In this document: one piece after another, positions 10,586 through 61,670 of the stretch
Numbering within the stretch: position 1 is the stretch's first letter
Layout of the letters: each line of letters opens with the position of its first letter
Source: Acidobacteriota bacterium
GTDB lineage: Bacteria; Acidobacteriota; Terriglobia; Terriglobales; SCQP01
NCBI GenBank assembly: GCA_027459505.1
Contig: DAIDIE010000001.1
Location: 26,318 to 90,317 of the forward strand
Length of the DNA stretch: 64,000 nucleotides
Direction of reading: 5' to 3'
Program-made: the position numbers and the translations under genes
Notes under the pieces: model-generated
What the model saw: the letters and a program-made list of their open reading frames with translations, nothing else
The model's database searches: none
Told to the model about the DNA's origin: nothing

Positions 10586-10640
10586 GTCGCAGTTCTCCTC
10601 GTCTTCGCGCGGTCTGTGCCGCGGCTTTGCTCCGGTCCGC

Positions 10641-11981
10641 CTATTGTTCCCAGGCGTCGCGGCGCGCGTCGATCAGCCGCCGCAGCTTGCGTCCCGTGCT
10701 CAACGTGCGGGGCGCGTGATAGTGAAAGTCGAACTCAAAAAATCGCTTCTGGTAATAGCGCCAGCAATCCGGAAACCGCTCCTCGATATTGCGGAAAATA
10801 TGCTCCCGCACCTCGTCGGCGCCCGCCTCGGGCCGCAGTTCGAGATGAAACTCGATGCGATCGTCGCGGTCCCCCCGCCGCACGATCACCTGCCAGTCGT
10901 CCGTCACATCGTGGATGTCACGCAGGATCTCCTCGAACCAGTAGGGGCTGATGTTGCCCATTGAGCAATTGATGAGCTCGTCGGAACGGCCCGCGATACG
11001 CGCCACCCGCGGCATCAACTGCAAGCCGCATTGGCATTGCCCGTCTTGCGCCCAACGTGTTACATCCGCGGAGCGGTAGCGGATCAGCGGCATCACCTGG
11101 CGATTGAGCGTGGTGTAGGTGAGTTCGCCATAACCATCCTCATCGGGATCGGCGATCTCATTGACCAGATTCAGATCGTCGAGGTGATATCCGTGCTTTT
11201 CCGGGCACTCGATTCCGTTGGCCCCGAAGGCTTCCGTCTGCCCATAACTCAGCACCACCCGCGCCCCTTTCCAGACCGATTCGATGTAGCGCCGCGTCCG
11301 CTCGCTCAGGTTCTCTCCACCCAGCAAAAGCAGTTTTACCGGCCAGATCCCCTCTTTTTCCGCAACCTCGGTGACGCGAACAATATGTGTTGGCACGCCC
11401 ATAATCACCGTCGGGCGGTACACTTTCACGCGCTCGTAAAACTCCTTGGGCTCCACAAAGGCGCCGATCACGTGCAGGCAGCGCAGCGGAATCAGCGCGT
11501 AGTAGGCGGTGAACGGCGCGTTCCAGAAGGAATAGTCGAACCCGTCCGCTACCACATCCTCGCGGCGTACTCCCAGGTTATACAGTCCCGCCGCCGAATC
11601 GCGGCCATAATGCTGCATTTCCGCATAGGAGAAATAAACCCGCTTATTCACCCCCATCGAAGTGCCGGTCGTTTCAAAACCAAACTCCGGTGGCGCGCAT
11701 AAGAAGTCCTCCACCGGGTTGTTGCGCAGATCGGCCGCCGTCGTAAAAAAGTTCCCCAGGTCGGCGTGACTGTACACCTTGCGCGGATCGATGCCGAATT
11801 CCTTGAACTTCCGCTGATAAAACCGCGAATGCTTGGCCGCGTAGCGCACCGTGCGGTTCATCCCCTGCCGCTGTAAGCGGCGGATCAGCCCGGGTGTCAG
11901 GCGCTGGCCAAAGCGCAAGCGCCGCCCCGGCTGGTTCAACAGCCGTTCGTCAACAAACTTGATGAGGCGATGGATTGCCAT
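10641..11981 (-). CDS. PaaK / coenzyme F390 synthetase-like adenylate-forming enzyme
   Basis: ...FFTTAADLR..., FETTGTSMGVNKRVYFS, ...LLLGGENLSE..., ...LSYGQTEAFG... match the phenylacetate-CoA ligase-like family. ATG 11981 (GAGGAA upstream) is preferred over TTG 11999. Confidence 0.8.
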   Translation of the reverse strand: MAIHRLIKFVDERLLNQPGRRLRFGQRLTPGLIRRLQRQGMNRTVRYAAKHSRFYQRKFKEFGIDPRKVYSHADLGNFFTTAADLRNNPVEDFLCAPPEFGFETTGTSMGVNKRVYFSYAEMQHYGRDSAAGLYNLGVRREDVVADGFDYSFWNAPFTAYYALIPLRCLHVIGAFVEPKEFYERVKVYRPTVIMGVPTHIVRVTEVAEKEGIWPVKLLLLGGENLSERTRRYIESVWKGARVVLSYGQTEAFGANGIECPEKHGYHLDDLNLVNEIADPDEDGYGELTYTTLNRQVMPLIRYRSADVTRWAQDGQCQCGLQLMPRVARIAGRSDELINCSMGNISPYWFEEILRDIHDVTDDWQVIVRRGDRDDRIEFHLELRPEAGADEVREHIFRNIEERFPDCWRYYQKRFFEFDFHYHAPRTLSTGRKLRRLIDARRDAWEQ

Positions 11982-12064
11982 ACGTAACCGGTTCCTCAAC
12001 AGGGCTTCCGCCCCGCCTCTCGCTTCCCTCGCGTCGCTTCCTCCGCACGCCCTCCCCGCCGTGC

Positions 12065-13303
12065 TCAGCGCCCGGCCGCATTGCGCAGAATCAGCGACGA
12101 ATTCTGTCCCCCAAATCCAAATCCGTTACTCATTGCCACCCCGATGTGCGCCGCGCGCGCCTCTCCCGCCACCACATTCAGCAAACAGTCGGGGTCGGGA
12201 GTGCTGTAGTTCAGCGTTGGTGGAATAAAACTCTCCCGCATTGCCAACACCGTCAACACCGCCTCCACCGCCGAGGCGGCGGCGATCAGATGTCCGGTCA
12301 TGGCTTTGGTTGAACTCACCGGAACCCGCGCCGCGGCATCGCCCCACACCCGGCGCAAAGCTGCCGCCTCCGCCTGGTCGTTCAATACCGTGCCCGTGCC
12401 GTGCGCGTTGATGTAGTCGATCTCGCCCGGCCTCAGCCCGGCATCGTGCAAGGCCGCACCAATGGCCTGCGCCGCACCCCGCCCCTGCGGATGACACTTG
12501 GTCAGCCCAAAACAGTCCAACGAGCTGCCATAACCCGCCAGTTGCGCCAGCGGCCGCGCGCCCCGCGCTTCCGCGTGCCCCGCCTCTTCCAGCACGAAGG
12601 CGGCGGCTCCTTCGCCAACCACGAAACCGGTGCGATGACGGTCAAAGGGCCTGCAGGCCCGTTCCGGCCCTTCGTGCGCCAGCGCCGAAAGCAGTTCAAA
12701 TTCCAGCAAACTCAGCGGATCAATCTGGCTGTCGGTGGCGCCGGCAATGACCACCTCCGCCTGCCCCCGTTCAATAATGCGTTTGGCCATTCCCAACGCA
12801 TCGTTCCCAGAAGCGCAGGCGGTATAGCAGGAGTAGCGTGCGCCTCCAACCCCCGCCCGCTGCGCTAAGCCGCTCAGCAACTGCTGGGGCCGGGGGCGCT
12901 CCTCCGCGTTCACATACGCCTCCTGCGCGCGCGCCATCTGCTCCTCGATGACATCAGTCCCCCGCACGCCTGCCACCACCCGGCCCAGCATCTGCAGGTC
13001 CGTGGGGGGCTTGCCCACCGCCCACACCAGGGCGCGATCCTGCGCGGCATCCGCCGCCGGCAGTTGCGCCTCACTCAACGCCTCTTCCAGAACCTGCCGC
13101 GCCAGCGCTGCCATGCGCGGATTGCCACTGGGAAAGACGGCATCGGTAATTTCACCTGCGATCCGCACCGGAAAACCATCCACCGGAAACTGGCGTATCG
13201 CGCCAATGCCGTTGTGTCCCCGGCGCATCCGCTCGGCCGTTTGCCGCTGCCCCACTCCCAGCGCGGAAACCACACCCATTCCGGTAATGACCGCTCGCCT
13301 CAT
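12065..13303 (-). CDS. Beta-ketoacyl-ACP synthase (FabF/KS-alpha type, catalytic triad intact)
   Basis: MRRAVITGMGVVSALG..., active-site Cys in YTACASGNDALG, His in INAHGTGTVLND and KAMTGHLIAAAS, and C-terminal GFGFGGQNSSLIL. ATG 13303 overlaps the upstream stop (ATGA at 13300-13303). Confidence 0.9.
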   Translation of the reverse strand: MRRAVITGMGVVSALGVGQRQTAERMRRGHNGIGAIRQFPVDGFPVRIAGEITDAVFPSGNPRMAALARQVLEEALSEAQLPAADAAQDRALVWAVGKPPTDLQMLGRVVAGVRGTDVIEEQMARAQEAYVNAEERPRPQQLLSGLAQRAGVGGARYSCYTACASGNDALGMAKRIIERGQAEVVIAGATDSQIDPLSLLEFELLSALAHEGPERACRPFDRHRTGFVVGEGAAAFVLEEAGHAEARGARPLAQLAGYGSSLDCFGLTKCHPQGRGAAQAIGAALHDAGLRPGEIDYINAHGTGTVLNDQAEAAALRRVWGDAAARVPVSSTKAMTGHLIAAASAVEAVLTVLAMRESFIPPTLNYSTPDPDCLLNVVAGEARAAHIGVAMSNGFGFGGQNSSLILRNAAGR

Positions 13304-14205
13304 CGCGCGGCTACCTCGGCATAGGAAGCGGGCAGTATCTGTAGTCCAGCCCCCGCCGCCACTCCCTCGCTCCGTTGCGGATCGGCGCCGCTCAGCCTGT
13401 CCACTGCCTCGATCATGCTCAACAACCCGCCACTCGCCGGGCAACGCCGTAAAGGCTCCTCGTCGATTCGTGCCGCAACCACACCACCAGACGCCGCAGT
13501 CGCCCGCAGCAGCCCCACCACCGCCGCTCCTCGCGCCTTGGCACTGCTCCAGCGCTCCAAAACCAGAGCGCCAGCGGCCTCGCGGCTCGTCTCCGTTTCT
13601 ACGCCATAGGCGGGCGAGTCGCCGGCTTCACAGACCATGAGATCCGCCCGCCCTTCCACGATCGTCCAGTAACTTTCCGCCACCGCCTGCTGCGCCGCTT
13701 CCACGCCAGAGGTCATCGTGAAGCTCGGCCCTTGCAATCCGAACAGCAGCGACACATGCGCAGCCGCCATGTTGGCCAGAAGTGTTAAACGGCGGAAGGG
13801 ATGCAGCTTGTGCAACGCCACCTCCCCAAACCGGCTCAACTGCAACTCCCCGCCCCCAGCCTCCTCCAGCGTCTGCACCAGATCCGCTGTGATCGGGGAT
13901 ATGTCAGTGGTCGCCAGGGCCGTTCCCGCCCGGGTCACGTCGGCGTGGCTGGTTAGTTCAGCGGTCGAGCCCATCCCCGCTTGCCGCATGGCCAGCACCG
14001 CTGCCGCCGACGCCAACTGAAAGAGCCGCTGCATCGAGCGCAATACTTTGGGATTGTGTATGTAGGCGGCTGCGTCGAAATCGGGGACCGGCCGCCCGAC
14101 CTCCCCGGGATCACGCAACCAATTCCGCAGCGCCGCGGGGCCCACCCCCGCAGGCGTTAATACCCCAACGCCGGTGATGGCGACGATGCTGGCCTCACCT
14201 TCCAT
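13300..14205 (-). CDS. Truncated KS-like protein without catalytic residues (chain-length-factor-like partner)
   Basis: Thiolase-fold N-half (IVAITGVGVLTPAG...). The Cys position reads FTMTSGVEAAQQA, with no Cys. The His-containing C-half motifs are absent; 301 aa. The start follows the upstream stop directly (TAAATG), and the stop overlaps the next KS start. Confidence 0.7.
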   Translation of the reverse strand: MEGEASIVAITGVGVLTPAGVGPAALRNWLRDPGEVGRPVPDFDAAAYIHNPKVLRSMQRLFQLASAAAVLAMRQAGMGSTAELTSHADVTRAGTALATTDISPITADLVQTLEEAGGGELQLSRFGEVALHKLHPFRRLTLLANMAAAHVSLLFGLQGPSFTMTSGVEAAQQAVAESYWTIVEGRADLMVCEAGDSPAYGVETETSREAAGALVLERWSSAKARGAAVVGLLRATAASGGVVAARIDEEPLRRCPASGGLLSMIEAVDRLSGADPQRSEGVAAGAGLQILPASYAEVAAR

Positions 14206-14949
14206 TTAGCCCCGCATGCCTCCATCCACGTGCAGTACTTCGCCGGTGATGTAGTCAGCATCCGGGGAAACCAAAAAGGCGACCACTCCGGCGATCTCTT
14301 CCGGCTTGCCAAAACGGTTCAGCGTGATGAACGGCAGGATCTTATCCGCTGCCATCTCGCGGATATTCTGGCTCATGTCGGTCTCGATCATGCCCGGCGC
14401 CACGGCGTTCACGTTGATGTTGCGGCTGGCCAGTTCCGCCGCCAGCGCCCGCGTCATCGCATTGATGGCGCCTTTGGAGGCGGCATAGTTGGCGTGCCCG
14501 CGGTTGGGCTTATGCCCGGCCGCCGAAGAGAGATTCACAATCCGGCCCCAGCGCTGCCGCACCATCAGCTTGGCCGCCGCACGGCTGCAATAAAACACGG
14601 AGTCCAGATTGGTCTGCAGCACCGCCCGCCAGTCTTCCTCTTCCATGCTCAGCAGCAGCGTGTCGCGCGTAATGCCGGCGTTGTTGATCAGGATGTCAAG
14701 CCGCCCAAACTGGGTCTGCACCGCTTCAAACATCGCCTGCACTTGCGCGAGCTGCGAGACGTCGGCGGGAAAAATCTCCGCCTCACCCCCTTGGGCGCGA
14801 ATCTCATCGCGCACTTTTTCGGCGTCGGCCTGATGGCTGCGATAGTTGATCCCAACCCGGGCGCCATCCTGCGCCAGCCGCAAAGCAATGGCGCGGCCAA
14901 TCCCCCGGCTGGCGCCGGTGACTAATGCGGTTTTCCCTTTAAGACGCAT
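14206..14949 (-). CDS. 3-oxoacyl-ACP reductase (FabG-type SDR)
   Basis: TGASRGIGRAIA, NNAG, and S...YAASKGA...PG motifs; 247 aa; GAGGAAA RBS. Confidence 0.9.
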   Translation of the reverse strand: MRLKGKTALVTGASRGIGRAIALRLAQDGARVGINYRSHQADAEKVRDEIRAQGGEAEIFPADVSQLAQVQAMFEAVQTQFGRLDILINNAGITRDTLLLSMEEEDWRAVLQTNLDSVFYCSRAAAKLMVRQRWGRIVNLSSAAGHKPNRGHANYAASKGAINAMTRALAAELASRNINVNAVAPGMIETDMSQNIREMAADKILPFITLNRFGKPEEIAGVVAFLVSPDADYITGEVLHVDGGMRG

Positions 14950-14977
14950 AGCTTTCCTCGCGCTCGAAACGGCGCGC

Positions 14978-16291
14978 TCAGACGCTTTGGCTGATCACCA
15001 GCGAAGCGGTGTTGCCCACCGGACTGGCGGCGTTCACCAGCAGGTGGCGCAATGGACGCGCCGCCTGAGCTTCCAACACATAGGCCAAACCCAGGTCGGG
15101 ATCCGGCTGATTCAGATTTTTCACCGGCGGTAAACCAATGTGTCCGCCCACGCACCCCAATCCCGCAACCACCTCCAGCGGGGCCGAGCCCGCCAACAGG
15201 TTGCCGGTGAACGACTTGATCGCGGTCACTGGCACGTAGCTCGAGCGCGCCGTGAGCAGCGCCTTGATGGCCTGCGCCTCGACCGCGTCCGCGTGGCGTG
15301 CACCGCAGGCCTGGGCAAAGATGGCGTCCAATTCCCAGGGATCCAGCCGGGCATCCGCCAGCGCATTTTCCATCGCCGCCTGAAACGCCTGCTGCGTTTC
15401 CGCCGGACGCGGCCCCACCCCGCTGCTGGCCGCCGCGAAACCGCGAATTTCACCGTATATGCGAGCCCCGCGCGCCAGCGCCGCCTCTCGCTCCTCCATC
15501 ACCAAAAACGTTCCGCCCTCGGCGGGCACAAAGCCGGCGCGCTGCCGGTCAAAGGGACGGCTGGCGCCCGCCGCTTCACCCTCGCCGTCGTTGCCGCCCT
15601 GGTACAGCAAACCGGATGATTCAAAGCTCTCCAGCCGCTCTTCATCCAGCAGCGACTCGTAGCCTCCCGCCACCGCGATATCCGCCTTGCCTTGCCGCAC
15701 GGCCCGGAAAGCCTCGCCAATCGCGATCGCGCCCCCTGCTCCGCTCATGCAGATATTGGCGTTCAGCCCCTGCGCCCCCAGCTTCAGACTGACGAAGTAA
15801 AGCACGATGTTCGCCAGACTCTTCAGCAGCCACAACGGATTGATGGTGGAAATCCCCTCCGCGCCAAACAGCCGCAAATCCACCGGATCGCCGTTACGCA
15901 GCGCCACTTCCAGCGCTGGCAGCAGCTCGTCGCGATCCCCCGCATGTCCCGGCGACCCCACAAAGCAGGCAATCCGGAATGGGTCCACTCCCTCTAGATT
16001 GAGTTGCGCGCTCTTGACCGCCAGCTCCGCCGCCGCTACCCCAATGCGCACCGGGCGCGTCATCAGCTTCAGCGACTTGGGGTCGGCGATGAACTGGCGC
16101 GCGTTGAAATCTGGAATCGCACCGCCAAGGCGCGTGCGGAACGGCGCTACATCGAAGTGCGTTATCGCACGCAAACCACTGCGCCCCTCGCCCAATGCCG
16201 CCCACAACTGCTCGGCTGAACAGCCCAGCGGCGAGACCATGCCTATGCCGGTGATGACCACACGGCGTCCGGGTTCACGCGACGTATTCAC
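14978..16291 (-). CDS. KS-like protein lacking both catalytic histidines (KS-beta/CLF-like)
   Basis: RRVVITGIGMVSPLG thiolase-fold N-terminus. Aligned by eye to the upstream KS, INAHGT becomes IFAQAC and TGHMV becomes TGNLL. The Cys region reads NICMSGAGGAIAIGEA, and the Cys alignment is ambiguous. Start GTG 16291 (GGAG upstream) is chosen; the track gives TTG 16327. Either start overlaps the upstream KS stop at 16275. Confidence 0.8.
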   Translation of the reverse strand: MNTSREPGRRVVITGIGMVSPLGCSAEQLWAALGEGRSGLRAITHFDVAPFRTRLGGAIPDFNARQFIADPKSLKLMTRPVRIGVAAAELAVKSAQLNLEGVDPFRIACFVGSPGHAGDRDELLPALEVALRNGDPVDLRLFGAEGISTINPLWLLKSLANIVLYFVSLKLGAQGLNANICMSGAGGAIAIGEAFRAVRQGKADIAVAGGYESLLDEERLESFESSGLLYQGGNDGEGEAAGASRPFDRQRAGFVPAEGGTFLVMEEREAALARGARIYGEIRGFAAASSGVGPRPAETQQAFQAAMENALADARLDPWELDAIFAQACGARHADAVEAQAIKALLTARSSYVPVTAIKSFTGNLLAGSAPLEVVAGLGCVGGHIGLPPVKNLNQPDPDLGLAYVLEAQAARPLRHLLVNAASPVGNTASLVISQSV

Positions 16292-17576
16292 GAAATACCA
16301 AGCTCCCGTTGGATCCACCAAAACCAAACGAATTCGAAATCACCGTCCGCACCTTCGCCTGCCGCCCCACGTTGGGTACGTAGTCCAGATCGCAAACTGG
16401 GTCCGCCATCTCCTGGTTCAGGGTTGGCGGAATGTAACCTTCACCTATCACCAGCAGTGAAATCAATGCCTCAATCGCTCCGGCCGCGTTCACCATATGC
16501 CCCGTCATCGACTTGGTCGAGCTGATGGGGACCTTCCTGGCGTACTCGCCCAGACAGCGCTTGATGGCCATGGTTTCGCTGGCGTCGTTCTGCACGGTCG
16601 AGGTCCCGTGGGCGTTGATGTAGTCCACCTCGCTGGGAGCGATCCCCGCGTCTTCCAACGCCGCATTCATGGCCAACAGCGGCCCTTGTCCGTCCGGAGG
16701 CGAGTCGGTTATGCGATATGCGTTAATGGAGCAGCCAAAACCGGCAATCTCGCCGTAAATGCGCGCTCCCCTCCGGTAGGCGTGCCAGGCGTCTTCCAGC
16801 ACCAGCATGGCCGCGCCTTCCGCCAGCACAAAGCCGTCGCGCGCCCCGTCAAAGGGACGCGATGCCGCCTTGGGATTGTCGTTGCGCTTGGAGAGCGCGC
16901 CCAGCAGGATAAAGCTGGACACCATGGTCGGCTCCATCAGGCTCTCCGCTCCCCCCGCCAGCATGATGTCCGCGTCGCCGCTGCGAATCTTCTCCACCGC
17001 GAATCCCACCGCCTGCGAGCTGGACGTGCACGCGGTTGAGATCGTGTTCATCGGGCCCCGCGCCCCAATCAGCGAACTGAGCGCGTAAACCAGAGCGTAG
17101 GGCGCATAGCGCAGGTATTCGTAACCGGGAATCGCCGCCAGCGCCGCGCGCCGCTCCGCTTCCGTCCGCGCCCGCAACTTGCGGGCCGCTAACTCCGGCA
17201 ATAGGCAATCGCGCCGCCCCTCCGTACCCATCGACACGCCAATGCGGCTGCCATCCACGCTGGCGTCGCCCAGCTTCAGACCCGCGTCGCCCAGCGCTTC
17301 CAGCGCCGCCGCGTAGCCAAACGTGTTCTTGCGGTCCAGCACGTCCTGAATTTCCGCCGGCGCCTTGCCCTGCACCTTCTCCAGATCAAAGCCGCGTACC
17401 TCGCCGGCAATGCGCGTCTCGAAGGTTGAGGCGTCAAACAGCGAAATCGTGTCGATCCCGCAACGGCGCTCCTTCAGCCCTTGCCAGGTTTCGGCGGCAT
17501 TATGCCCAATCGGCGTCACCGCCCCCAGCCCGGTCACCACCACTCGCCTGCCTTTATTTGGACCGTGCGACTTCAT
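16275..17576 (-). CDS. Beta-ketoacyl-ACP synthase II-like (catalytic triad intact)
   Basis: RRVVVTGLGAVTPIG, active site TACTSSSQAVG, INAHGTSTVQND, KSMTGHMVNAAG, SNSFGFGGSNGSLVF. The ATG overlaps the dehydratase stop (ATGA at 17573-17576). Confidence 0.9.
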   Translation of the reverse strand: MKSHGPNKGRRVVVTGLGAVTPIGHNAAETWQGLKERRCGIDTISLFDASTFETRIAGEVRGFDLEKVQGKAPAEIQDVLDRKNTFGYAAALEALGDAGLKLGDASVDGSRIGVSMGTEGRRDCLLPELAARKLRARTEAERRAALAAIPGYEYLRYAPYALVYALSSLIGARGPMNTISTACTSSSQAVGFAVEKIRSGDADIMLAGGAESLMEPTMVSSFILLGALSKRNDNPKAASRPFDGARDGFVLAEGAAMLVLEDAWHAYRRGARIYGEIAGFGCSINAYRITDSPPDGQGPLLAMNAALEDAGIAPSEVDYINAHGTSTVQNDASETMAIKRCLGEYARKVPISSTKSMTGHMVNAAGAIEALISLLVIGEGYIPPTLNQEMADPVCDLDYVPNVGRQAKVRTVISNSFGFGGSNGSLVFREYVA

Positions 17577-18100
17577 TCCGCTCCCGTTCCCTTTCCCTTG
17601 CCCAGCGCCTGCAGCCGCGGCCAGTGCTCGCGCAGCAGCGCCCGGTTCACGTTCTCCGCCCAGCGCTCCAGATCCTGCCGCGCCGACTCCGGAATCACGT
17701 TGTCTCCCCCGCTCTGATATCCCAGCGTCACCTCGGCCGTGGTCATCGTCTGGCCATCGACTTGCGCCGTCCCCTTACAACGGCCCGCGCCATCGGTCAT
17801 CGCCGTCAACTCCACTCGCACCACCACGGTGTCGCCCGGTCGCACAAAACGCCGGAATTTGGCGTTACTCACACCCAGCAGCACCGGCAGTACCACCTCG
17901 CCCGTCTCCGCCCGCACCGTGTACGTGATCAGCCGCCCGGCCAATTGCGCCATCGCTTCCACCAGCAGCACGCCGGGAACCACCGGAAATCCGGGAAAAT
18001 GGTCGGCAAAATAGTCCTCCGCCATCGCCGGGTTTTTTACGCCCACGGCGTGACTGCCCGGCTCCAGCTCGGTGATTTTGTCGATCAGAATGAATCGCAC
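17573..18100 (-). CDS. FabZ-like hot-dog 3-hydroxyacyl-ACP dehydratase with a C-terminal extension
   Basis: GTG 18100 is preceded by AAGGGG. The product VRFILIDKITELEPG...ADHFPGFPVVPGVLLVEAMAQLAG carries the FabZ catalytic His/Glu motif. About 45 extra C-terminal residues follow. The ORF-track start at 18304 is over-extended. Confidence 0.85.
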   Translation of the reverse strand: MRFILIDKITELEPGSHAVGVKNPAMAEDYFADHFPGFPVVPGVLLVEAMAQLAGRLITYTVRAETGEVVLPVLLGVSNAKFRRFVRPGDTVVVRVELTAMTDGAGRCKGTAQVDGQTMTTAEVTLGYQSGGDNVIPESARQDLERWAENVNRALLREHWPRLQALGKGKGTGAE

Positions 18101-18239
18101 GTTCCCCTTGGCCCTTTCCCGCTGTTGGCCAGCCCCTCTGCAACGCAATGCCTGCCCGCTCACTATCCCGCCAACTTCAGGCACACTTCGACTGCGGAGC
18201 CGCCATGTGCCCCTGTGCATCCACCGCTTGGCGACCAGT

Positions 18240-18728
18240 TCAGCTTCCCGCGCTGGTGCTCGCTCCGCCCGTCTCCCCCAACCGCCACGCCACCAGCCGG
18301 GCAAACGTTTCGGGAGTGAACAGCGTCGGAATCTCGCGCGCCGGCAAGCCGGTATGGAATTTCGCCGGGTCCACTTCGGGCATCAGTATGCGCAGACGCT
18401 CCAGGGCGGCTTCGGTCAGAATGCCGTTCTGCTGAAACTCGGCGTCGCTCAACGATCCCTGCGTCGCCTTCTGAATGCCACCGCGCGGAATCTTGATTCC
18501 GAATTCCGATTCCAACTGGAACAGCAGATCCAGAAAATCGAGCGACTCGGCGCCCAGATCCTTCATCAGGCTGGAGTTGGCCTGCACCTCATCCTCGTCC
18601 TTGCCCAGCACGCTGGCCACCGCTTTGCGCACCGTGGTCAGAATCTCGTCGTGACGAGTGGCCAGCACACTGTCGGCGGCCTTGCGGATATGCAGTACCT
18701 CTTCGGAGCTCTTGCTCACTTCAGTCAT
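18240..18728 (-). CDS. Acyl carrier protein with an internal insertion (162 aa)
   Basis: GGAGG RBS. Phosphopantetheine-attachment motif LGAESLDFLDLLFQLESEFGIKIP. About 50 residues are inserted before a helix-IV-like TPETFARLVAWRL. Confidence 0.8.
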   Translation of the reverse strand: MTEVSKSSEEVLHIRKAADSVLATRHDEILTTVRKAVASVLGKDEDEVQANSSLMKDLGAESLDFLDLLFQLESEFGIKIPRGGIQKATQGSLSDAEFQQNGILTEAALERLRILMPEVDPAKFHTGLPAREIPTLFTPETFARLVAWRLGETGGASTSAGS

Positions 18729-18792
18729 CTCGTAGCCTCCGCGGCGCCACCCTCTGCGGCGCCGGAATTGAATTTCTTGCCGCGCTGATGCC

Positions 18793-19557
18793 TCAGCGCA
18801 CGCTCATCAGCGACAGACCGCCATCGGCGATGATGGTCTGTCCGTAAATCCAGTGGGCCGCGTCGGAACACAGAAACGCGACTACGTCGCAGACGTCGTC
18901 CGGCGTCCCGATCCGCCCGGCGGGAGAGTACTCCTCGCACGCCTTTTTCATCTGCTCAAACGTGGAAAACAGCTTCAGCGCGTCGGTCTCTATCGGACCC
19001 GCCGAAAGCGTGTTCACGTTGATGCCCAGCCTCCCCAACTCCACGCCCAGATAGCGGGTCAATGCCTCGGTCGCCGCCTTGGTCACGCCAATCGCGGCGT
19101 AGCCCGGTATATAGTGCTGCGAACCCAGACTCGACAGGCTCACGATCTTGCCCTTGCGGTCCTTCATCAGCGGCACGCAACGCTGCGCGCTGTACAGCAG
19201 CGCGTTGGTGTTGCCGTTCAACGTGTGTTCCCAACCGTCTTTCCTGGTGCGTAGCAGTGGACCAAACGCGGCCACATCAATGGCGTTGTTAATGAAAATG
19301 TCGAGGTGGCCAAATTGCGCCTTCACAAAGTCAAAAAGCTTCGTGATCCCCTCGCTGCTGATGGCGTCGGCTTCGACAATCTCCGCGCGCCGCCCTTTGC
19401 CGCGAATCTCCTCCGCCAGCGCCTTGGCCCGGTCTTCGCTGGTCACGTAATTGATGACCACGTCCGCGCCGTGATCCGCCAGGCGCAGCGCGATCGCCCG
19501 CCCGATTCCCCGGGCCGCGCCGGTCACCAGCGCTACCCTGCCTTGCAAGTCAATCAC
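18793..19557 (-). CDS. FabL-type enoyl-ACP reductase (SDR)
   Basis: GTG 19557 with GAGGAG upstream. VTGAARGIGRAIA, SLSSLGSQHYIPGYAAIGVTKAATEALTRYLGVEL, GPIETDALKLF and GQTIIADGG closely parallel B. subtilis FabL (compared from memory). Confidence 0.8.
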   Translation of the reverse strand: MIDLQGRVALVTGAARGIGRAIALRLADHGADVVINYVTSEDRAKALAEEIRGKGRRAEIVEADAISSEGITKLFDFVKAQFGHLDIFINNAIDVAAFGPLLRTRKDGWEHTLNGNTNALLYSAQRCVPLMKDRKGKIVSLSSLGSQHYIPGYAAIGVTKAATEALTRYLGVELGRLGINVNTLSAGPIETDALKLFSTFEQMKKACEEYSPAGRIGTPDDVCDVVAFLCSDAAHWIYGQTIIADGGLSLMSVR

Positions 19558-19788
19558 ACACGTCTCCTCTGTCCGCCAGACGACCGGCGAACCCAGATGG
19601 CGTTTCCACTGGCCGATGGAGCAGGGCCGGCGCACCCGGAAGGGAGGCCCGGCCGCTTTTCATCCCGCACTAGCCCTTCGGTACAGGCACACGGGCAACC
19701 CAACAAGCTCCCTGTTGGTAAACTCCCGCCACTGCCCTACCGCGGCCCGCACCCTTGCAAACCGAACCGCTGTTCCCAGCGGTCCGCT

Positions 19789-21099
19789 TTACACCACCGC
19801 CTTGACCCGCAACTGCTGCGCCAGGCGATGAAGCGTCTGCTCCAGTCTCTGGAACTGCAGGCTCAGGTCATGCTGCGGCTGGCCGGCGCTTACCTGCGGG
19901 CTCTTGAAGAAAAAGCCCAGCCACTCCTGCACGCCGCTTTCTCCCGCGCGTTGGGCCGCATAGCTCAACAGCGCCAGATCCAGCAGCAGGGGGGCGGCCA
20001 AAATACTGTCTCGGCACAAGAAGTTTACCTTGATCTGCATCTGGTAGCCCAGCCACCCGATCAGGTCAATCGTGTCCCAGCTCTCCTTGTTGTCGCCCCG
20101 CGGGGGATAATAGTTGATTTTCACCTGGTGCGACACGTTGCCGTACAGCTCCGGATAGGTCCCCGCGTCCAGAATCTGGTTCAGTACCGACAGCTTCGAC
20201 TCTTCCTTACTGCGGAAAGCCGCCGGATCGTCCAGCACCGCCCCATCCTGATTGCCCAGAATATTCATCGAAAACCAGCCCGACAGACCCAGCATCCGCT
20301 GCTTGATCCCCGGCGCCAGAATCGTCTTCAACAGCGTCTGCCCGGTCTTCAGATCCTTGCCGCTGATCACGCAGCCCTTCGCCTTGGCCAGATCGATCAT
20401 CACCGGCAGATCAACCGTCAGCGTGGGCGTCGCGTTCACAAACGAACAGCCCTCCTGCAGCGCCGCGTAGGCGTAAACCATGCTGGGCGCAATGCTGGGA
20501 TCGTTCTCGCGCAGCGCCGTCTCGAATATCTTCAGGCCTTGATGCGCCGGTCCGGGGGTAAGAAAAACCTCCGTGGAACCGCACCACATCACAACCACAT
20601 CCTGCAGTCCGTTGCGGCGGCGAAACTCGCGAATGTCGGCACGCAGCGCCTCCGCCTGCTCCATCTTATTGGTCTCCGGCTTCAGCTTGCGGCCTTCCGT
20701 GCGGCGCAGGAAGCGGGGATCGTGAATGCCGGGCATCGGCTGAATCTTCTCCAGCGCCGGCCGCAACTGCTCCAGCAGTCCACGGTCCAGAACCGCCGCG
20801 CGCACCGCCGATTCATAGCAGTTGCCCCCCGAAATGTCCCATCCCCCAAATACCAGTTGATCCAGTTGCGGCAACCGCAGGTAGGTCGCGAGCGGCACCT
20901 TTTGTCCCGGATCTTCCGCGTCGTCGATCTGCATCAACTGCGTGATCGCCCCAAAGGGACGCGCCAGCCCGCTCTTAACCGCTTCCACTCCCGCGATCAG
21001 CGTGGTCGCAATTGAGCCCATTCCGGCCAATAAAATTCCCACCCGGGCGTTCTCAGACTCCGCCTGGGACTTGTCCTGCCAACGTAGAGGTTCTGTCAT
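19789..21099 (-). CDS. ino1: myo-inositol-1-phosphate synthase (inositol-3-phosphate synthase)
   Basis: ARVGILLAGMGSIATTLIAG (NAD site), ...VVVMWCGSTE..., ...SGKDLKTGQTLLKT..., ...NILGNQDG..., ...KESWDTIDL... are typical of the bacterial/archaeal MIPS family. ATG 21099 with a GGAGAG RBS. Confidence 0.9.
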   Translation of the reverse strand: MTEPLRWQDKSQAESENARVGILLAGMGSIATTLIAGVEAVKSGLARPFGAITQLMQIDDAEDPGQKVPLATYLRLPQLDQLVFGGWDISGGNCYESAVRAAVLDRGLLEQLRPALEKIQPMPGIHDPRFLRRTEGRKLKPETNKMEQAEALRADIREFRRRNGLQDVVVMWCGSTEVFLTPGPAHQGLKIFETALRENDPSIAPSMVYAYAALQEGCSFVNATPTLTVDLPVMIDLAKAKGCVISGKDLKTGQTLLKTILAPGIKQRMLGLSGWFSMNILGNQDGAVLDDPAAFRSKEESKLSVLNQILDAGTYPELYGNVSHQVKINYYPPRGDNKESWDTIDLIGWLGYQMQIKVNFLCRDSILAAPLLLDLALLSYAAQRAGESGVQEWLGFFFKSPQVSAGQPQHDLSLQFQRLEQTLHRLAQQLRVKAVV

Positions 21100-29856: not shown

Positions 29857-30255
29857 ATGAACATTGCCGTCACAACCATCGCCATTGCCCTGATCGTTTG
29901 GGTGAACTGGTACTTCCTGTTTGCGGGTCGTGCCCCCGTCCCAGCCGCGATCTCCACCCCGCTGGCGACTTCAGGAACGGTGCCGGCGCAAGCGGCTCAG
30001 GAGATCACCATTCGCGTCGAGGGCGGCTACGATCCCAGCAGCATCGCCGTCCGCGCCGGGCAGCCTGTGCGCCTGGTCTTTGATCGCCGCGAGGATAACC
30101 CCTGCAGCGCGGAGATCGTCTTCCCCGACTTCCGCATTCGCAAACCGCTGGCCGCCTTTGCTTCCACCAGCGTCGAGTTCACGCCCCCGCGCCCGGGAAC
30201 GTATGAGTTTAGCTGCGGCATGGGCATGCTGCACGGCCGTGTGATCGCCAGCTAG
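29857..30255 (+). CDS. Membrane-anchored cupredoxin-like domain protein
   Basis: N-terminal TM helix ([20 protein letters not shown]), then a ~90-aa domain ending [14 protein letters not shown] (Cys/Met/His ligand-like pattern). Located between copZ and copA. Confidence 0.65.
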
Positions 30256-30281
30256 ATGCCCACACAGAGGAGGCAGGACCT

Positions 30282-32894
30282 ATGCCAACAAGTCAGACCA
30301 AGCCGGTAGCCACCGAACTTGCGGTGACGGGAATGACCTGCGCCTCCTGCGTCGCACGTGTGGAGAAGACGCTGAAGCGCCTGCCCGGCGTTGAAGACGC
30401 CGCCGTCAATCTCGCCACCAATAAAGCCTCCATCCGTTTCCACCCTGAACAGATCCGGCTGCGGCAACTGGTCGACGCCGTGCGCGAGATCGGCTACGAC
30501 GCGCCCCTCACCACCAGCACTTTTCAGGTCAGTGGCTTGGAAATGACCCAGGACCCACAACCGCTGCAGCGCGCCGTCGCCAGCCTTCCCGGCGTCGCCT
30601 CAGCGCAGCTCAATTTGGCCAGTGGCGAACTCCGCGTCGAGCACACCGGCAACCTGAGGTCCGAGATCATCCGGATAGTCGAGCAGCGCGGCTTTCAGGT
30701 AGCGGAGCGCGGTGCCCCGGAGACTGACCCCGCGGCCCACGAACACGCCCATGACTACGCCGATGCCGAGACCAGCCGCCTGCGCACGCGCTTTTGGGTG
30801 GCGCTGGCCGCCAGCGCCGTCGTGATGTTCTTCTCCATGCTGCTGCAGGCCTCCCTGCCCCGCATGGCGGGCGCAACGCTTTCCGATCCGCTGATGAAGT
30901 GGATGTCGCCGCTCAGCCACGCCTTGCTGCAGGCCTTGGGCGGCGCCCCCCTCTGGACGCCCGGCCTGCTGCGCTGGCTCCTCCTGCTGCTCACACTCCC
31001 GGTCGTCGGTTGGGCGGGACGGCATTTCTATGTCCGCGCCTGGAAGGCCTTCCGTCACCACGCCGCGGATATGAACACCCTCATCGCCGTGGGAACCGCC
31101 GCCGCTTTTCTCTTCTCCCTGATCTCTACCCTGGCGCCCACGCTGTTCACTCATCACGGCCTGGCCGCGGACGTCTACTACGAAGCCGTTGACTGGATCA
31201 TTGCCCTGATCCTGCTCGGCAACTGGATGGAGAGCCGCGCCCGCCGCCAGACCGCCGGCGCCATCCGCTCCCTCATCAAACTGCAAAGCCGCACCGCGCA
31301 CCTGCTGCGCGACGGCCAGGAATCTGAAGTTCCCGTCGACGCGCTGCAACCCGGCGACCTGGTCCGCATCCGCCCCGGGGAACGCATTCCCGCCGACGGC
31401 CTCGTCCGTGAAGGCGCCAGCAGCGTCGATGAAAGCATGCTTACCGGCGAATCCATGCCGGTCGAAAAGCAGCCCGGCGCCGAGCTCATAGGCGGCACCG
31501 TGAACGGCAACGGCGGACTCGTCGCCGAGCTGCGCCGCGTCGGAGAGCAAACCACCCTGGCGCAGATTGTGCGCCTGGTGGAACAAGCGCAGGGCTCCAA
31601 GGCCCCCGTCCAGCGCCTCGCCGACCGCGTCGCCGGCGTCTTCGTCCCGGTGGTCATCTCCCTTGCCATTGCCACCTTCGCCATCTGGTTTGATTTCGGT
31701 CCCTCGCCCCACCTGCTCTGGGCCTTTCTCACCGGCGTCACCGTGCTCGTCATTGCCTGCCCCTGCGCCATGGGACTGGCCGTACCCACTGCGGTGATGG
31801 TGGGCACCGGACAGGGCGCACGCCAGGGTGTGCTGATCCGCGGCGGAGAAGCACTGGAAAAATTGCAGGCGGTGCGCACCATCGTGCTCGATAAAACGGG
31901 AACCATCACCGCCGGACGCCCCGAAGTTACGGACCTGCTGCCCACGCAGGCATCCAGCGAGCCCGAACTGCTCGCCACCGCCGCCTCTCTCGAAGCGCAC
32001 TCCGAACATCCCCTGGGGCAAGCGATTGTCCGCGCCGCACAGAGCCGCGGGTTGCCCCTTGCGGAAATCGACGGCTTCACCGCCATTCCCGGCAAGGGCA
32101 TTCATGGCCAAAGCCGCGGTACCGCTGAGACATTGCTGGTGGGCAGTGACGCCTACATCGCCTCAGCATTTCCGGAAGCCTCCAACGCCCGCACGGCCGC
32201 AGCCACGACCCTTGCGCAGTGGGCCAGCCAGGGCAAAACAATCGTCGGCGCGGCTCGCGGAACACGCTTGCTCGGCTGGTTGGCCGTTGCCGACCCGATT
32301 AAGCCCGGCTCCGCCGATGCCATCCGGAGTCTGCGCCACCTCGGCCTGCGCCTCGTAATGCTCACCGGCGATGCGCCCGCCACCGCGCAGGCCATTGCCT
32401 CCCAGTTGGGCATTGAGGAAGTGCGCGCGGGCGTGCTGCCGGCCGGCAAAGCTGACGAGGTGCGCCGCTTGCAGCAACAGGGGCTCAGCGTTGCCATGGT
32501 TGGTGATGGCATAAACGATGCCCCCGCCCTCGCGCAGGCCGATGTGGGCGTCGCCATTGGCACCGGCACTGATGTCGCCATGGAAGCCAGCGACGTCACC
32601 CTGGTACGCGGCGATTTGCGTGCCCTGCTGCGCGCCATCCTGCTCTCGCGCCGGACCATGCGGATCATCCGCCAAAACCTGTTTTGGGCCTTCGGATACA
32701 ACGTGATCGGCATCCCCATTGCCGCCGGCCTGTTGTATCCCGCCTTTCACATTTTGCTGTCCCCAGTACTGGCCAGTGCGGCCATGGCTTTCAGTTCGGT
32801 AAGCGTGGTCAGCAACAGCCTGCGCCTGCGCCACACCGGGGGTGATGAGCGGTTTGCCGGCCAAAGCCAACTCCGCGCCAGGACAACCGCCTAG
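30282..32894 (+). CDS. copA: Copper-translocating P1B-type ATPase
   Basis: HMA with GMTCASCV, a second HMA-like repeat lacking CxxC, TGES (LTGESMPV), CPC (ACPCAMGLA), DKTGT, and GDGINDAP. Confidence 0.95.
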
Positions 32895-43485: not shown

Positions 43486-43562
43486 TGGTAGCGCCAGCGG
43501 GATTCGAACCCGCGATCTTCGCCTTGAGAGGGCGACGTCCTGGGCCGCTAGACGATGGCGCC
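43486..43562 (-). tRNA. tRNA-Glu: tRNA-Glu (anticodon CUC), CCA encoded
   Basis: The reverse complement folds as a cloverleaf. Acceptor GGCGCCA/TGGCGCT. D-arm GTCT-AGCGGCCCA-GGAC. Anticodon arm TCGCC-CTCTCAA-GGCGA. T-arm GCGGG-TTCGAAT-CCCGC. Discriminator A plus CCA. The TCGTCTAG..GGCCCAGGAC region is characteristic of bacterial tRNA-Glu. Confidence 0.9.
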
Positions 43563-44941: not shown

Positions 44942-46426
44942 TCAAATCAGACGGGCAAACTGCTCGTCGGTAGGCTCGCTTCAACAGAACCACGGCTCAT
45001 TTAAATACGGAATCGTCGCCCGCGCGGGCAGCACCACACCCGCCGCCGCGGCCAGTGGGGCGGCTTGCTGGTCTTCTTCGGCCTCGGCCGGAGTCTCAGC
45101 TACAGACTCCACCGCCCGCGTCAGGTTTCGCACCGCCGCAAAAATTCTTTCCCGCGTGGCCGCCACGCTGTTGGCCACCGCCGTCCCCGGCGCCGTCGCC
45201 GTTTGCACCAGTTCCTGCACCCGCAGGCACAGCTCATCAACCCTCGAGTCGGTGTGCCGCCATTCGTAGCTCAACTGCCGCGCGTTGAACTCGCCCAGCC
45301 AGCCCTCTTCCCGTCCCAGTTCCAATAGCCCGGAACCCTCGGGCAGCAATAGCCGCACCGCCAATTGAATGGGCGCCACCTGCGCTTCCAGCTCCAGCCG
45401 CTGCAACGCGTCGAGCATGCGCTGGTAGCTTTCCAGGCTGGTCCAGGGCGTGAAGGCGACCAGGGTCGGGTTCAGCGCTATCCCGTGCCGCCGCACCAAT
45501 TCCACCGCGCGCTCCACGTCCGCGCGCGTGTGCCGCTTTTGCAGCCGTTCCAGTACAGTATCGTCAAACGACTCCACCGCGCTGGTAATCAGCGCACATC
45601 CCGTGGCCTGCAATTCCGGCAGCAGCTCCGCATGTTGCAGCAGGTGCTCGACCTTTATAGTCGCGTCATAGGTGACTTCCGGAAACCGCGCATGCAGCCC
45701 TCGCACCACGCGCAACGCATGCGTGGGCCCATTCAGAAAATCAGGATCGCCGAAGGTGATGTGCTGCGCGCCCGCCTCGACCTGCTGCGCAATGTCGGCC
45801 AGCACCACCTCCGGCGCCACCACCCGGAACTGTCCCTGGTACACCGGAACGATGGGGCAGTGCCGGCAGTGGTGCTTGCAGCCACGGCTGGCCTCCGTGT
45901 AACCCACCAGCTTAGCCGCTCGCCCCTCCTGCTCCAGTTGTGCATAGCGGGAGAGAGGCGGTAATCCCACCCGTTCGGGTGGCACAAACGCCAGCCGCGG
46001 CACGCTCTGCCCTGCCTCAGCCGCCTCGCGCTCGCCCTCCACCCGGCCGTCACGCAGCGCCACCGCCAGCCGGCATAGCTCTTCTTCAAATTCCCCGCCG
46101 AGAACGCTGGCAAAGCCGTGCGCGCGCAAGAAGCGCGCATTCAGCGGCGCGTACAATCCATAGGCCGCCAGGTGCGCGGACCCGTTGAGTTCTTTCAACC
46201 GCGGCGCCAATTGCATGGCCAAGCGCGTCGCCGTGTGCATCGGCAGGTGGATGGCGATCAGGTCGGCCCCCCTCACCGCTTCCATCACCTGCGTTTCGTT
46301 CAGCGGCTGGCGCGAAAGATCAAACACCTCTACCGCGATCCCTGCGCGCCGTAGCCACGCCGCCGGCGAGGCCAGCCCAAAGGGCTGCCGTCCCATCTCG
46401 TAGGTGGCCATCAAAACAGCACGCAT
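44942..46426 (-). CDS. B12-binding-domain-like radical SAM protein, predicted selenoprotein (TGA 44981-44983 read as Sec; tail ...EPWFC-U-SEPTDEQFARLI)
   Basis: Radical SAM cluster motif SRGCKHHCRHCPIV (CX3CX2C). N-terminal MRAVLMATYEMGRQPFGLASPAAWLRRAG...DLIAIHLPMHTA region. An in-frame TGA directly after Cys is followed by 12 sense codons and a second TGA at 44942-44944. There is a hairpin 12 nt downstream of the first TGA. See findings. Confidence 0.7.
44950..44983 (-). other. Candidate Sec codon (44981-44983) plus SECIS-like hairpin (44950-44968)
   Basis: mRNA: UGA AGCGAGCCUACC GACG(A)GCA-GUU-UGC(C)CGUC. It has 7 base pairs with one A/C mismatch and G and U in the apical loop. The stem starts 12 nt after the UGA. 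Confidence 0.5.
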
Positions 46427-46587
46427 ATTTCGATCATAAAACGTGCGCAACGCTCCCGGGAATTTACACACCCTGCTGGCCGTCAATCCCGCGCCGGATC
46501 AGGTACGATTAAGTACGCATCACGTCCACGACGATGGAGACGAACCCGGGCTTCGGCCACGCCGCCGAGGTAGTGTATTTTCCCCGC

Positions 46588-47784
46588 ATGGCCCCCAACT
46601 TTGAACGCAGACTGTTTGACCTGATCGAGAGCGTCTCGCGCGCCGAGCGCGACGGCTCGTTCTCCAACGCGCTGGCCGACAGCATCATGCGCGAATTCGG
46701 CCCCAGCCTCAAACTGCGCTCGGTGGCCATCTTCCGTCCGCAAGGCCTGCGCTACGAACCTACCTACTGCGCCGGCGAGCCGCTCTGGGATGTCGTGGAT
46801 GGCTCCCTGTCCACGCGCACCGTGCAGCGCCGTTTGCAGGGACAACTGTGGTGGGTGCAGCGCGGCCTCAAACGCGTCACCCCGCAACAGACCGAGTGGT
46901 TCGACCTCATCCTCATCCCCGTCGCCCGCAACCTGCAGTTCATCATCGGTCTGCTCACCAACTCGCTGGCCGGCGATGAGGGCGAGGAGCGCGAAACCAC
47001 TTTCCACGTCATGGGCCAGTTGATCCGGCTCTTTGTCGATCGCCACCACCAGCGCCAGCGCCTGCAGGAGATTCTCACCCTCGCCCGCCAGCAACAGCTC
47101 AGCCTCCTGCAGCCGGAGTTGCCGCGCATTCCCGGCTTCCAGGTCGCGGGTGTATCGCTCCCCAATCAGGAAGTGGGAGGCGATTACTTCCAGGTCATCA
47201 AGCTGGCCCCGGATTTGTTCGCGCTGGCGCTGGCCGACGCCAAAGGCAAGGGCTTTGAAGCCGCCGTGCAGGTTACCGGCCTGCATGCCGGGCTGCGCGT
47301 GGTCAGCGAAACCCCCTTCAAGGTCTCCCACAAAGTGGGCCTGCTCAACCGCAGCCTCGCCCAGGGCGATGAAATGCGCAACCTGGTCTCGCTGTTCTAC
47401 GCCGAACTCGACACCCAGGGACGCCTGCTTTACGTCAACTGCTCGCACCCGCCGCCGTTCGTGGTTCGCGCCGGCGGTGTCATTGAAGAACTACCCGACG
47501 GTGGCATGTTCCTCGGCCTCAGCCCCGACAGCATTTACCGCATCGGCATCTTCGAGCTGCGCCCTGGCGACGTGCTGGTCGTCTACTCCGACGGCTGGAG
47601 CGAGTTGTTCAACGATCAGGGCGAGGAGTTCGGCGCCGACCGCTTACGCGAAACGCTGCGCCAGGTGCACCGCTGGGAACCCCAGGCCGTCATCGACCTC
47701 ATCCAGGCCAGTTGCGACCAGTTCCGCGGCGAAGCTCCTTACCAGGACGACCGTACGCTGCTGGTGCTCAAACGCGATGGATAG
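46588..47784 (+). CDS. PP2C/SpoIIE-family serine phosphatase with N-terminal GAF-like sensor region
   Basis: C-terminal half has GGDYFQV, ALADAKGKGFEAA, VYSDGWSE and QDDRTLLVLKR. Start ATG 46588 is preferred. Confidence 0.8.
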   Translation: MAPNFERRLFDLIESVSRAERDGSFSNALADSIMREFGPSLKLRSVAIFRPQGLRYEPTYCAGEPLWDVVDGSLSTRTVQRRLQGQLWWVQRGLKRVTPQQTEWFDLILIPVARNLQFIIGLLTNSLAGDEGEERETTFHVMGQLIRLFVDRHHQRQRLQEILTLARQQQLSLLQPELPRIPGFQVAGVSLPNQEVGGDYFQVIKLAPDLFALALADAKGKGFEAAVQVTGLHAGLRVVSETPFKVSHKVGLLNRSLAQGDEMRNLVSLFYAELDTQGRLLYVNCSHPPPFVVRAGGVIEELPDGGMFLGLSPDSIYRIGIFELRPGDVLVVYSDGWSELFNDQGEEFGADRLRETLRQVHRWEPQAVIDLIQASCDQFRGEAPYQDDRTLLVLKRDG

Positions 47785-61170: not shown

Positions 61171-61219
61171 TCAATTGCCGGGAGCTTGCACTCTTCCCGC
61201 GCCCACCCCAAAAATCTCT

Positions 61220-61670
61220 GCCGCAAGCGGACTGTAAGCCGGATTCTGTACCTGACGGTTCCCCGCCAGGCGGCAATCATTCTTCTAGGAGAGCCATTAC
61301 TGGCTCCCTCCAGCAACCTACCCGGAAGTTGCACCCCGCCAAGGCGGGGAACGGGCCGGGCCGGCCCATGCGCCCTGCGGCGCTCCTTCCCTATTTGGTC
61401 TTGCTCCGTGTGGGGTTTGCCCTGCCCCCGGCCGTTACCGGCGGGGCGGTGCGCTCTTACCGCACCTTTTCACCCTTACCGGACGGCGCAGCCGCCCGGC
61501 GGTACGTTTTCTGTGGCACTTTCCGTGAACCGGCGTTGTGACACCGGCCCCCTGGCCGTTAGCCAGCACACTGCCCTGTGGAGTCCGGACTTTCCTCTCC
61601 CCGGGACCGGCCGCCACCGCCGCAGCGTGTGGCGCGGTCTCCCAGGCAGCAATTGCCCGTCCGCTTGCAA
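61220..61670 (-). ncRNA. rnpB: RNase P RNA, bacterial type A
   Basis: The reverse complement contains GAGAGGAAAGTCCGGACTCCACAGGGCAG (P4/CR-I) and ACAGAAAACGTACCGCC. It also contains GGTAAGGGTGAAAAGGTGCGGTAAGAGCGCACCG, GGGTAGGTTGCTGGAGGGAGCCAGTAATGGCTCTCCTAGAAGAATGATTGCC and ACAGAATCCGGCTTACAG. P1 pairs GCAAGCGGAC (61659-61668) with GTCCGCTTGC (61223-61232). The ends are good to a few nt. Confidence 0.95.

Follow-up and report, generated by a model that had tools for sequence, protein, structure and literature searches.

Locus organization

The window analyzed here, a 64,000-nucleotide (nt) stretch from an Acidobacteriota bacterium (assembly GCA_027459505.1, contig DAIDIE010000001.1, positions 26,318 to 90,317), carries on its minus strand a gene for a radical S-adenosylmethionine (SAM) enzyme with an in-frame TGA close to its 3' end, followed directly by a gene for an ATP-grasp enzyme of the L-amino-acid-ligase type (Table 1). 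In the list of open reading frames (ORFs), the radical SAM ORF ends ...YLNEPWFC (...CCG TGG TTC TGT) immediately before this TGA, and the same frame then runs on as AGC GAG CCT ACC GAC GAG CAG TTT GCC CGT CTG ATT TGA, which translates to SEPTDEQFARLI before a second stop. Evidence presented below indicates that the first TGA is very probably read as selenocysteine (Sec), so that the enzyme would end in an adjacent Cys-Sec pair followed by a conserved tail.

Both ends of the gene differ among the available annotations. We place the start at ATG 46426, from which the protein begins MRAVLMATYEMG..., because orthologs begin MRxVLISTYELG; other possible starts are TTG 46486 in the ORF list and 46411 in the public record. 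That public protein record (P0001) has 476 amino acids (aa) and is cut at ...WFC. The next gene opens a 424-aa ORF at ATG 44936, 5 nt past the second stop, with the same start and length in its public record (P0121), while an alternative start at GTG 44993 would overlap the radical SAM ORF by 13 nt. A preliminary description of this DNA, made from the letters alone, had already placed the first TGA, the 12-codon continuation, and the second stop, and had pointed to the 5-nt spacing and the 13-nt overlap; all of these are exact to the base.

Table 1. Coordinates of the radical SAM locus and its downstream gene, in positions of the window
Feature	Position	Strand	Remarks
Predicted full-length radical SAM selenoprotein gene	44942..46426	(-)	494 aa plus stop; U at residue 482; NF040546 family
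CX3CX2C motif, C183-K-H-H-C187-R-H-C190, ligand of the radical SAM [4Fe-4S] cluster	45857..45880	(-)	Cys invariant in alignments
Cys481 codon (TGT), first residue of the putative Cys-Sec dyad	44984..44986	(-)	invariant in all alignments
In-frame UGA, probable Sec codon (U482)	44981..44983	(-)	TGA/TGC/TGT alternation in orthologs
C-terminal tail after Sec, 12 sense codons (S-E-P-T-D-E-Q-F-A-R-L-I)	44945..44980	(-)	tail conservation; NF040546 match
Candidate SECIS-type hairpin, GACG(A)GCA-GUU-UGC(C)CGUC	44950..44968	(-)	begins 12 nt and has its loop 20 nt after the UGA
Probable true stop (TGA) of the radical SAM gene	44942..44944	(-)	sequence and translation
ATP-grasp enzyme, L-amino-acid-ligase type, 424 aa	43662..44936	(-)	starts 5 nt past the radical SAM stop

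Family membership and protein architecture

For profile searches, Cys was put in place of the stop codon to give a read-through protein of 494 aa. This protein matches NCBIfam NF040546, the CUAEP/CCAEP-tail radical SAM (seleno)protein family, at 610.4 bits (E = 2e-183), well above the curated cutoff of 500 bits for this equivalog model. The alignment spans residues 4-491 of 494 and profile positions 2-467 of 468, and the tail therefore belongs to the match. The window protein has the CX3CX2C motif and the ...EPW[YF]-C-U/C-x-E-P ending of the family, whose orthologs alternate between Sec and Cys at the position of the TGA. Its own ending, ...EPWF-C-U-SEPTDEQFARLI, agrees with the C-[U/C]-A-E-P tail that defines the family, with E-P and the following Q conserved and Ala changed to Ser, so that it reads C-U-S-E-P where the family name has C-U-A-E-P. 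Judged from its sequence, the window gene is an ordinary member of NF040546 with a Ser-for-Ala change in the tail.

Pfam Radical_SAM (PF04055) matches at 49.5 bits, and the B12-binding domain PF02310 reaches 26.3 bits, under its cutoff of 32.1. None of the cluster cysteines C183, C187, and C190 varies in alignments of 29 and of 120 sequences, and the conserved Cys/Sec sites of the family comprise these three together with C277, C481, and the Sec position. In an AlphaFold model of a Cys-form ortholog (P0002), the predicted local distance difference test score (pLDDT) is 92.6 and falls to 53 and then 35 past the CC pair, which points to a flexible C-terminal end. The closest solved folds to this model are AprD4 (6fd2, E = 7e-19), OxsB, TsrM, and MgmA. 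On the strength of these comparisons, the enzyme probably has a class-B radical SAM architecture, with a Rossmann-like N-terminal domain and a CX3CX2C barrel, and cobalamin binding is only putative; AprD4 is not known to use cobalamin. A sequence search of the PDB for a structure of ArsL, a characterized relative discussed below, or of a member of this family returned distant matches only, with AprD4 at E = 5e-7.

The family was named as an uncharacterized CU selenoprotein by Haft (bioRxiv 10.1101/2022.07.06.499078). We found no further mention of it in the literature beyond this preprint, and it is absent from the text of a 2026 review of prokaryotic selenoproteomes. Because NCBIfam already curates the phenomenon as a family of selenoproteins, the recoding is not new in itself; in the searchable literature, we found no description of the SECIS (selenocysteine insertion sequence) anatomy or of the conserved ATP-grasp partner reported here.

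Codon alternation and tail conservation among orthologs

To compare the codon at the TGA position across the family, we used 80 loci from a scan of species-representative genomes; one of them (L072) yielded no motif, and the remaining 79 together with the window make up the 80 loci compared. The scanned loci are mostly from metagenome-assembled genomes of Acidobacteriota, with some from Latescibacterota, Calditrichia, Chloroflexota, Methylomirabilota, and Entotheonella. At the position of the window TGA, 66 loci have TGA, 10 have TGC, and 4 have TGT, and none has TAA or TAG. After this codon, all 80 loci continue in frame with a tail of the form [A/S/V]-E-P-x-x-x-Q, with 11-29 codons to the next stop. 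The same split is visible in protein records: about three-quarters of the best 120 protein matches end ...EPW[YF]C, and the rest read ...EPWYC-C-AEP[T/N]xxQ.... The Cys-form ortholog P0002, for example, ends CCAEPTSEQFARMIV, close to the U-SEPTDEQFARLI of the window, and both this tail and that of locus L010 (AEPTDEQFARLGQ) are nearly identical to the window tail as protein, at overall identities of 55-57%.

Conservation beyond the TGA could also have a source outside the radical SAM protein, such as a leader or regulatory hairpin of the ATP-grasp gene or the N-terminus of the longer ORF from GTG 44993. Such an ORF does exist, and the hairpin listed in Table 1 lies ~15 nt upstream of ATG 44936, where it could influence translation from that start. 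What is conserved, however, lies in the radical SAM frame (A-E-P-T-x-x-Q), and it persists both where a DUF169 gene stands between the two genes and in loci that have no ATP-grasp gene. Moreover, Cys-form orthologs translate straight through this region, and alignments with ATP-grasp orthologs begin at residues 1-8 of the protein made from ATG 44936, the same start that the public record uses. With these observations in hand, we regard an explanation of this kind as barely conceivable.

Codon usage just 5' of the UGA also shows a bias. In 50 of the 66 Sec loci, among them the window (44984-44986), the Cys residue preceding the UGA is encoded by TGT. Elsewhere in these GC-rich genes, TGT accounts for 96 of 443 Cys codons (22%; Fisher p = 1e-17 against the codon before the UGA, in lineages that are not independent), and at the corresponding position of Cys-form orthologs it is found in 3 of 14. 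This excess suggests that the U before the UGA is perhaps under selection.

A conserved hairpin downstream of the UGA

All 66 TGA loci can form a hairpin of 6-9 bp that begins 12-13 nt past the UGA and is centered on the invariant Gln codon of the tail. The 26-nt segment has a mean folding energy of -10.4 kcal/mol in TGA loci and of -5.4 kcal/mol in Cys-codon loci, most of which lack the hairpin (Mann-Whitney p = 1.2e-6; because orthologous loci are phylogenetically related, p-values given in this section overstate independence). The hairpins fall into two registers, in which gapless alignments show 87.5% (39 sequences) and 89.6% (27 sequences) of cells paired, compared with 31-58% in controls with slid partners. 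Compensatory changes affect four stem pairs in each register class, one pair occurring as A-U in 17 sequences, C-G in 14, and G-C in 2, and cells with changes on both sides number 38 and 12 in the two classes. None of 500 shuffles reached the observed covariation score or percentage paired. When the same two structures are imposed on Cys loci, 54% of cells pair, against 88% in Sec loci. All 66 Sec loci use CAG for the Gln in the loop, compared with seven CAG and four CAA among Cys loci (p = 2e-4), a pattern that fits selection on the loop G.

Within the tail (window positions 44945-44980 and the orthologous tails), residues 5-6 and 9-11 co-vary as amino acids, in combinations such as G-D...V-P, E-E...A-L, and D-E...A-R. 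The codons of these residues form both strands of the SECIS stem, so that pairing in the RNA, and not protein function, appears to set part of the tail's amino acid sequence.

In the window itself, the hairpin is the minimum-free-energy (MFE) fold, with the 26-nt element at -7.7 kcal/mol (z = -2.67; 3 of 200 shuffles were as stable). Published rules for bacterial SECIS elements call for an apical loop of 3-9 nt with G within the first two positions, usually followed by G or U, an upper stem of 4-16 bp, a UGA-to-loop distance of 16-37 nt, and an MFE of at most -7.5 kcal/mol (PMC13188914). The window element fits these rules, with a loop of GUU (or A-GUU-U), 7 bp, a spacing of 20 nt, and the energy given above. 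Taken alone it stands only modestly above chance, and its significance rests on comparison with orthologs. A covariance model built from 37 orthologous elements, with the window and its twin L014 left out, finds one significant site in the 64 kb, at 44942-44983 (19.2 bits, E = 1.7e-5).

Tail conservation by itself proves only that translation proceeds past the UGA, and it would equally accommodate a route other than SelB and Sec, such as near-cognate suppression inserting Trp or Cys, or a genetic code in which UGA is sense. Of the 53 remaining predicted genes in the window, however, ~21 end in TGA, and the organism therefore uses the standard code. In addition, the aligned residue in orthologs is always Cys, which is the signature of Sec, and a hairpin with a G-U loop at SECIS distance is specific to TGA loci. 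Read-through by such a route is in our view highly improbable.

Weighing the evidence for selenocysteine

Taken together, we conclude, with a probability of roughly 93%, that the TGA at 44983-44981 is a Sec codon, that the hairpin at 44968-44950 is a bacterial SECIS, and that the product is a 494-residue member of NF040546. Carrying this conclusion are the membership of the gene in the family, the alternation of Sec and Cys codons, the conservation of the tail at the protein level, and a hairpin that is conserved and covaries across orthologs. Under this reading, the hairpin with its G-U apical loop would recruit SelB carrying Sec-tRNA(Sec), the ribosome would insert Sec at UGA 482, and translation would go on for 12 codons to the real stop at 44944-44942, yielding a radical SAM enzyme that ends ...EPWF-C-U-SEPTDEQFARLI.

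The preliminary description had arrived at the same overall reading, a recoded UGA with a Cys-Sec C-terminus, from operon spacing, the hairpin, and a proposed family assignment, and each of these arguments held. The CUAEP/CCAEP-tail family proved to be real and is matched above its cutoff with the tail included, and the proposed fold, starting 12 nt past the UGA and with G/U in its loop, is the MFE fold and fits the published SECIS rules. The comparisons with relatives that it had suggested also came out in its favor: a Cys codon stands opposite the TGA in 14 of 80 loci and TGA in the other 66, the tail is kept as protein throughout the 80, and the hairpin recurs in every TGA locus with compensatory changes in both register classes.

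Several observations nonetheless weigh against the conclusion, most of them concerning the window copy of the hairpin. In a 66-nt context, its stability is unremarkable (z = -0.6), and it passes the -7.5 kcal/mol rule only narrowly. It is among the weakest of the set, with one A.C mismatch that it has in common with L014. A sequence-only model scores the same window site at 23.3 bits, higher than the 19.2 bits of the structured model, meaning that the window copy is recognized by its sequence and that structure adds nothing measurable; because of this, the structural claim rests on covariation among orthologs and not on the window hairpin, and for those orthologs the shared ancestry noted above tempers the statistics. 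Rfam, searched over the whole window at gathering thresholds and over a 201-nt region at E up to 10, returned no SECIS-like family and only noise, a result that is uninformative for a gene-specific element. The residue after the Sec/Cys position is Ala in 78 of the 80 loci and Val in one, and the window alone has Ser.

The machinery for Sec insertion is likewise missing from the window. ARAGORN found no tRNA-Sec in the 64 kb, only a tRNA-Glu(CUC), and a Pfam sweep of the 52 further predicted genes found no SelA, SelB-wing, or AIRS domain, so that selA, selB, and selD do not lie in these 64 kb. This absence says nothing about the rest of the genome, and ARAGORN also found no tRNA-Sec near the 80 orthologous loci. 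Some Acidobacteria use Sec (Zhang et al. 2006, PMC1794560). Since the tail and hairpin are intact in a gene whose orthologs are only ~55-60% identical, we infer that the genome probably carries selA, selB, selC, and selD and makes the full-length protein. When we looked in the window for further selenoproteins, as pairs of ORFs in one frame with a TGA between them, only antisense or adjacent-gene artifacts came up.

The missing machinery, the weak and mismatched hairpin, and the atypical Ser after the UGA would all be accommodated if the TGA were a genuine stop, Sec decoding having been lost or not being expressed, with the enzyme 13 residues short at ...WFC and the tail and hairpin persisting as relics that have yet to decay. 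Against this stand a 12-codon tail that is intact, in frame, and nearly identical to those of L010 and P0002 despite the much lower overall identity, the presence of the same mismatched hairpin in L014, and a downstream gene that starts 5 nt after the second stop and not the first. By analogy with ArsL, where deletion of the tail abolishes product formation, an enzyme truncated in this way would probably be inactive. We consider loss of decoding very unlikely and retain the reading of the TGA as Sec.

For annotation, this matters because the ORF list and the public record, in ending at ...WFC, drop the dyad that probably carries the chemistry; the entry should be a 494-aa selenoprotein. To the curated family our analysis adds two handles, a family-specific SECIS formed from the tail's own codons and a conserved L-amino-acid-ligase partner.

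The ATP-grasp partner and neighboring genes

The product of the gene downstream of the radical SAM gene matches Pfam ATP-grasp_4 (PF13535, 92.6 bits) and LAL_C2 (PF18603, 67.1 bits), both over their cutoffs, and its closest solved structures are the L-amino acid ligases BL00235 (3vot, E = 5e-24) and BacD (E = 1e-7); in NCBIfam, it reached no equivalog. Among the 67 loci with enough flanking DNA, 50 have an ortholog of this gene adjoining the radical SAM gene, nearly always immediately downstream and on the same strand, and it accompanies both the Sec and the Cys forms.

Other genes recur near the orthologs. A DUF169 gene (PF02596) of ~238 aa lies between the radical SAM and ATP-grasp genes in eight loci (L003, L008, L012, L013, L016, L022, L028, and L056); the window has no copy of this gene, which is perhaps an optional third component. 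In 44 of 80 loci, a gene for a YggX-type Fe(2+)-trafficking protein (PF04362) lies ~1.4 kb downstream of the UGA, convergent to the ATP-grasp gene and in most cases encoded on the other strand; the 64-kb window has no copy of it. Its presence could reflect lineage synteny or a connection to the maintenance of Fe-S clusters; we considered YggX as a functional partner and set it aside, as it is absent near the window gene. Neighbors resembling zwf, pgi, and glk (glucose-6-phosphate dehydrogenase, glucose-6-phosphate isomerase, and glucokinase by sequence inspection) were likewise considered as functional partners and are read as probable housekeeping genes in lineage synteny.

The immediate surroundings of the window gene include a SpoIIE/PP2C-type phosphatase gene (46534-47784, plus strand), divergent from the radical SAM gene with ~107 bp between them and not conserved beside orthologs. 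The only tRNA gene in the window, tRNA-Glu (CUC), lies at 43486-43562 on the minus strand, 100 nt downstream of the ATP-grasp stop and on the same strand as that gene. Somewhat further away are genes for a PCYCGC-motif protein (PF13798; 48420-48956, minus strand), 2 kb from the radical SAM gene, and, on its other side at 4.4 kb, for a LysW-like zinc ribbon protein (PF21344; 39970-40578, minus strand), with no link established for either.

Other features of the window

Elsewhere, the window contains a bacterial class A RNase P RNA (61219-61668, minus strand, 270.9 bits). A same-strand run of genes at 9266-21099 (minus strand) encodes a DegT-type aminotransferase, an AMP-binding enzyme, products of three ketoacyl-synthase genes, a FabA-like dehydratase, two short-chain reductases, and a myo-inositol-1-phosphate synthase, and resembles a dedicated biosynthetic cluster for a lipid or polyketide-like product. 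At 29857-32894 on the plus strand, a gene for a cupredoxin-like protein is followed by one for a heavy-metal P-type ATPase with an HMA domain, a pair that likely serves copper export.

Comparison with known systems

The second-best profile match of the read-through protein is that of ArsL (NF040542; 281.5 bits over residues 4-401, under the cutoff of 450), which makes ArsL the closest characterized homolog, with an alignable N-terminal domain and CX3CX2C core. ArsL acts in arsinothricin biosynthesis, where it cleaves SAM in a non-canonical manner to a 3-amino-3-carboxypropyl (ACP) radical and methylthioadenosine (10.1101/2024.02.01.577332) and forms a C-As bond, with As(III) held by its C-terminal RCCLKC tail; removal or mutation of this tail leads to loss of product formation (10.1101/2024.02.01.577332; 10.64898/2026.04.29.721666). 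Both proteins have a short, Cys-rich, flexible C-terminal tail with adjacent chalcogen ligands, CC in ArsL and CU in the window protein. They differ in that ArsL's RCCLKC offers three ligands and CUSEP two, and in that the window gene has an ATP-grasp ligase as its partner and no arsM or arsQ neighbors.

The likeness suggests, tentatively, that the Cys-Sec tail serves as a flexible arm as it does in ArsL. Such an arm might hold a soft atom (a metalloid, metal, or chalcogen) at the active site, or alternatively might cycle as a selenenylsulfide there, and the downstream ATP-grasp ligase would then process the product of the radical SAM enzyme. We think this function possible, though doubtful. 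Three considerations count against it: the last ~90 residues of the window protein are unaligned with ArsL, whose tail does not align with the CUSEP tail; no ars genes (the arsM/arsQ neighborhood) turned up near the locus in the Pfam sweep of the window; and homology to ArsL is the sole source of the functional proposal. A more specific version, which we hold to be unlikely, would have the two genes form a pathway in which an ACP radical is joined to a soft atom (As, Sb, Se, S, or a metal) on the Cys-Sec arm to give a non-proteinogenic amino acid, the ligase then coupling a second amino acid, and Sec acting as a substrate ligand and not as a redox residue. That the radical SAM and ATP-grasp pair would constitute such a pathway widely in soil Acidobacteriota and several other phyla belongs to the same reading and is to be taken as equally speculative. 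The family has thousands of homologs in soil metagenomes, and its nearest characterized relative makes an unusual carbon-arsenic bond by means of a Cys-rich tail.

A C-terminal Cys-Sec pair is also known from thioredoxin reductase, which has the redox tail GCUG. As in the window protein, Cys and Sec stand side by side there on a flexible arm, within a few residues of the C-terminus. Its fold and cofactors are unrelated to those of the window protein, in which 12 residues follow Sec, and redox shuttling is only putative for the latter.

At the level of RNA, the family hairpin can be compared with the SECIS of Escherichia coli fdhF, in which the loop nucleotides G23 and U24 lie almost equally far from the UGA. 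The AGGUC loop sequence of fdhF recurs in some orthologs. The family hairpin is shorter than the 40-nt fdhF element, has no conserved bulged U that we could identify, and takes its stem sequence from the tail's own codons. In its upper stem of 6-9 bp and its UGA-to-loop distance of 20 nt, it resembles the bacterial SECIS consensus, and with fdhF and the bSECISearch consensus (PMC13188914) it shares a location within the coding region, close to the UGA on its 3' side, and a small loop in which G is followed by U.

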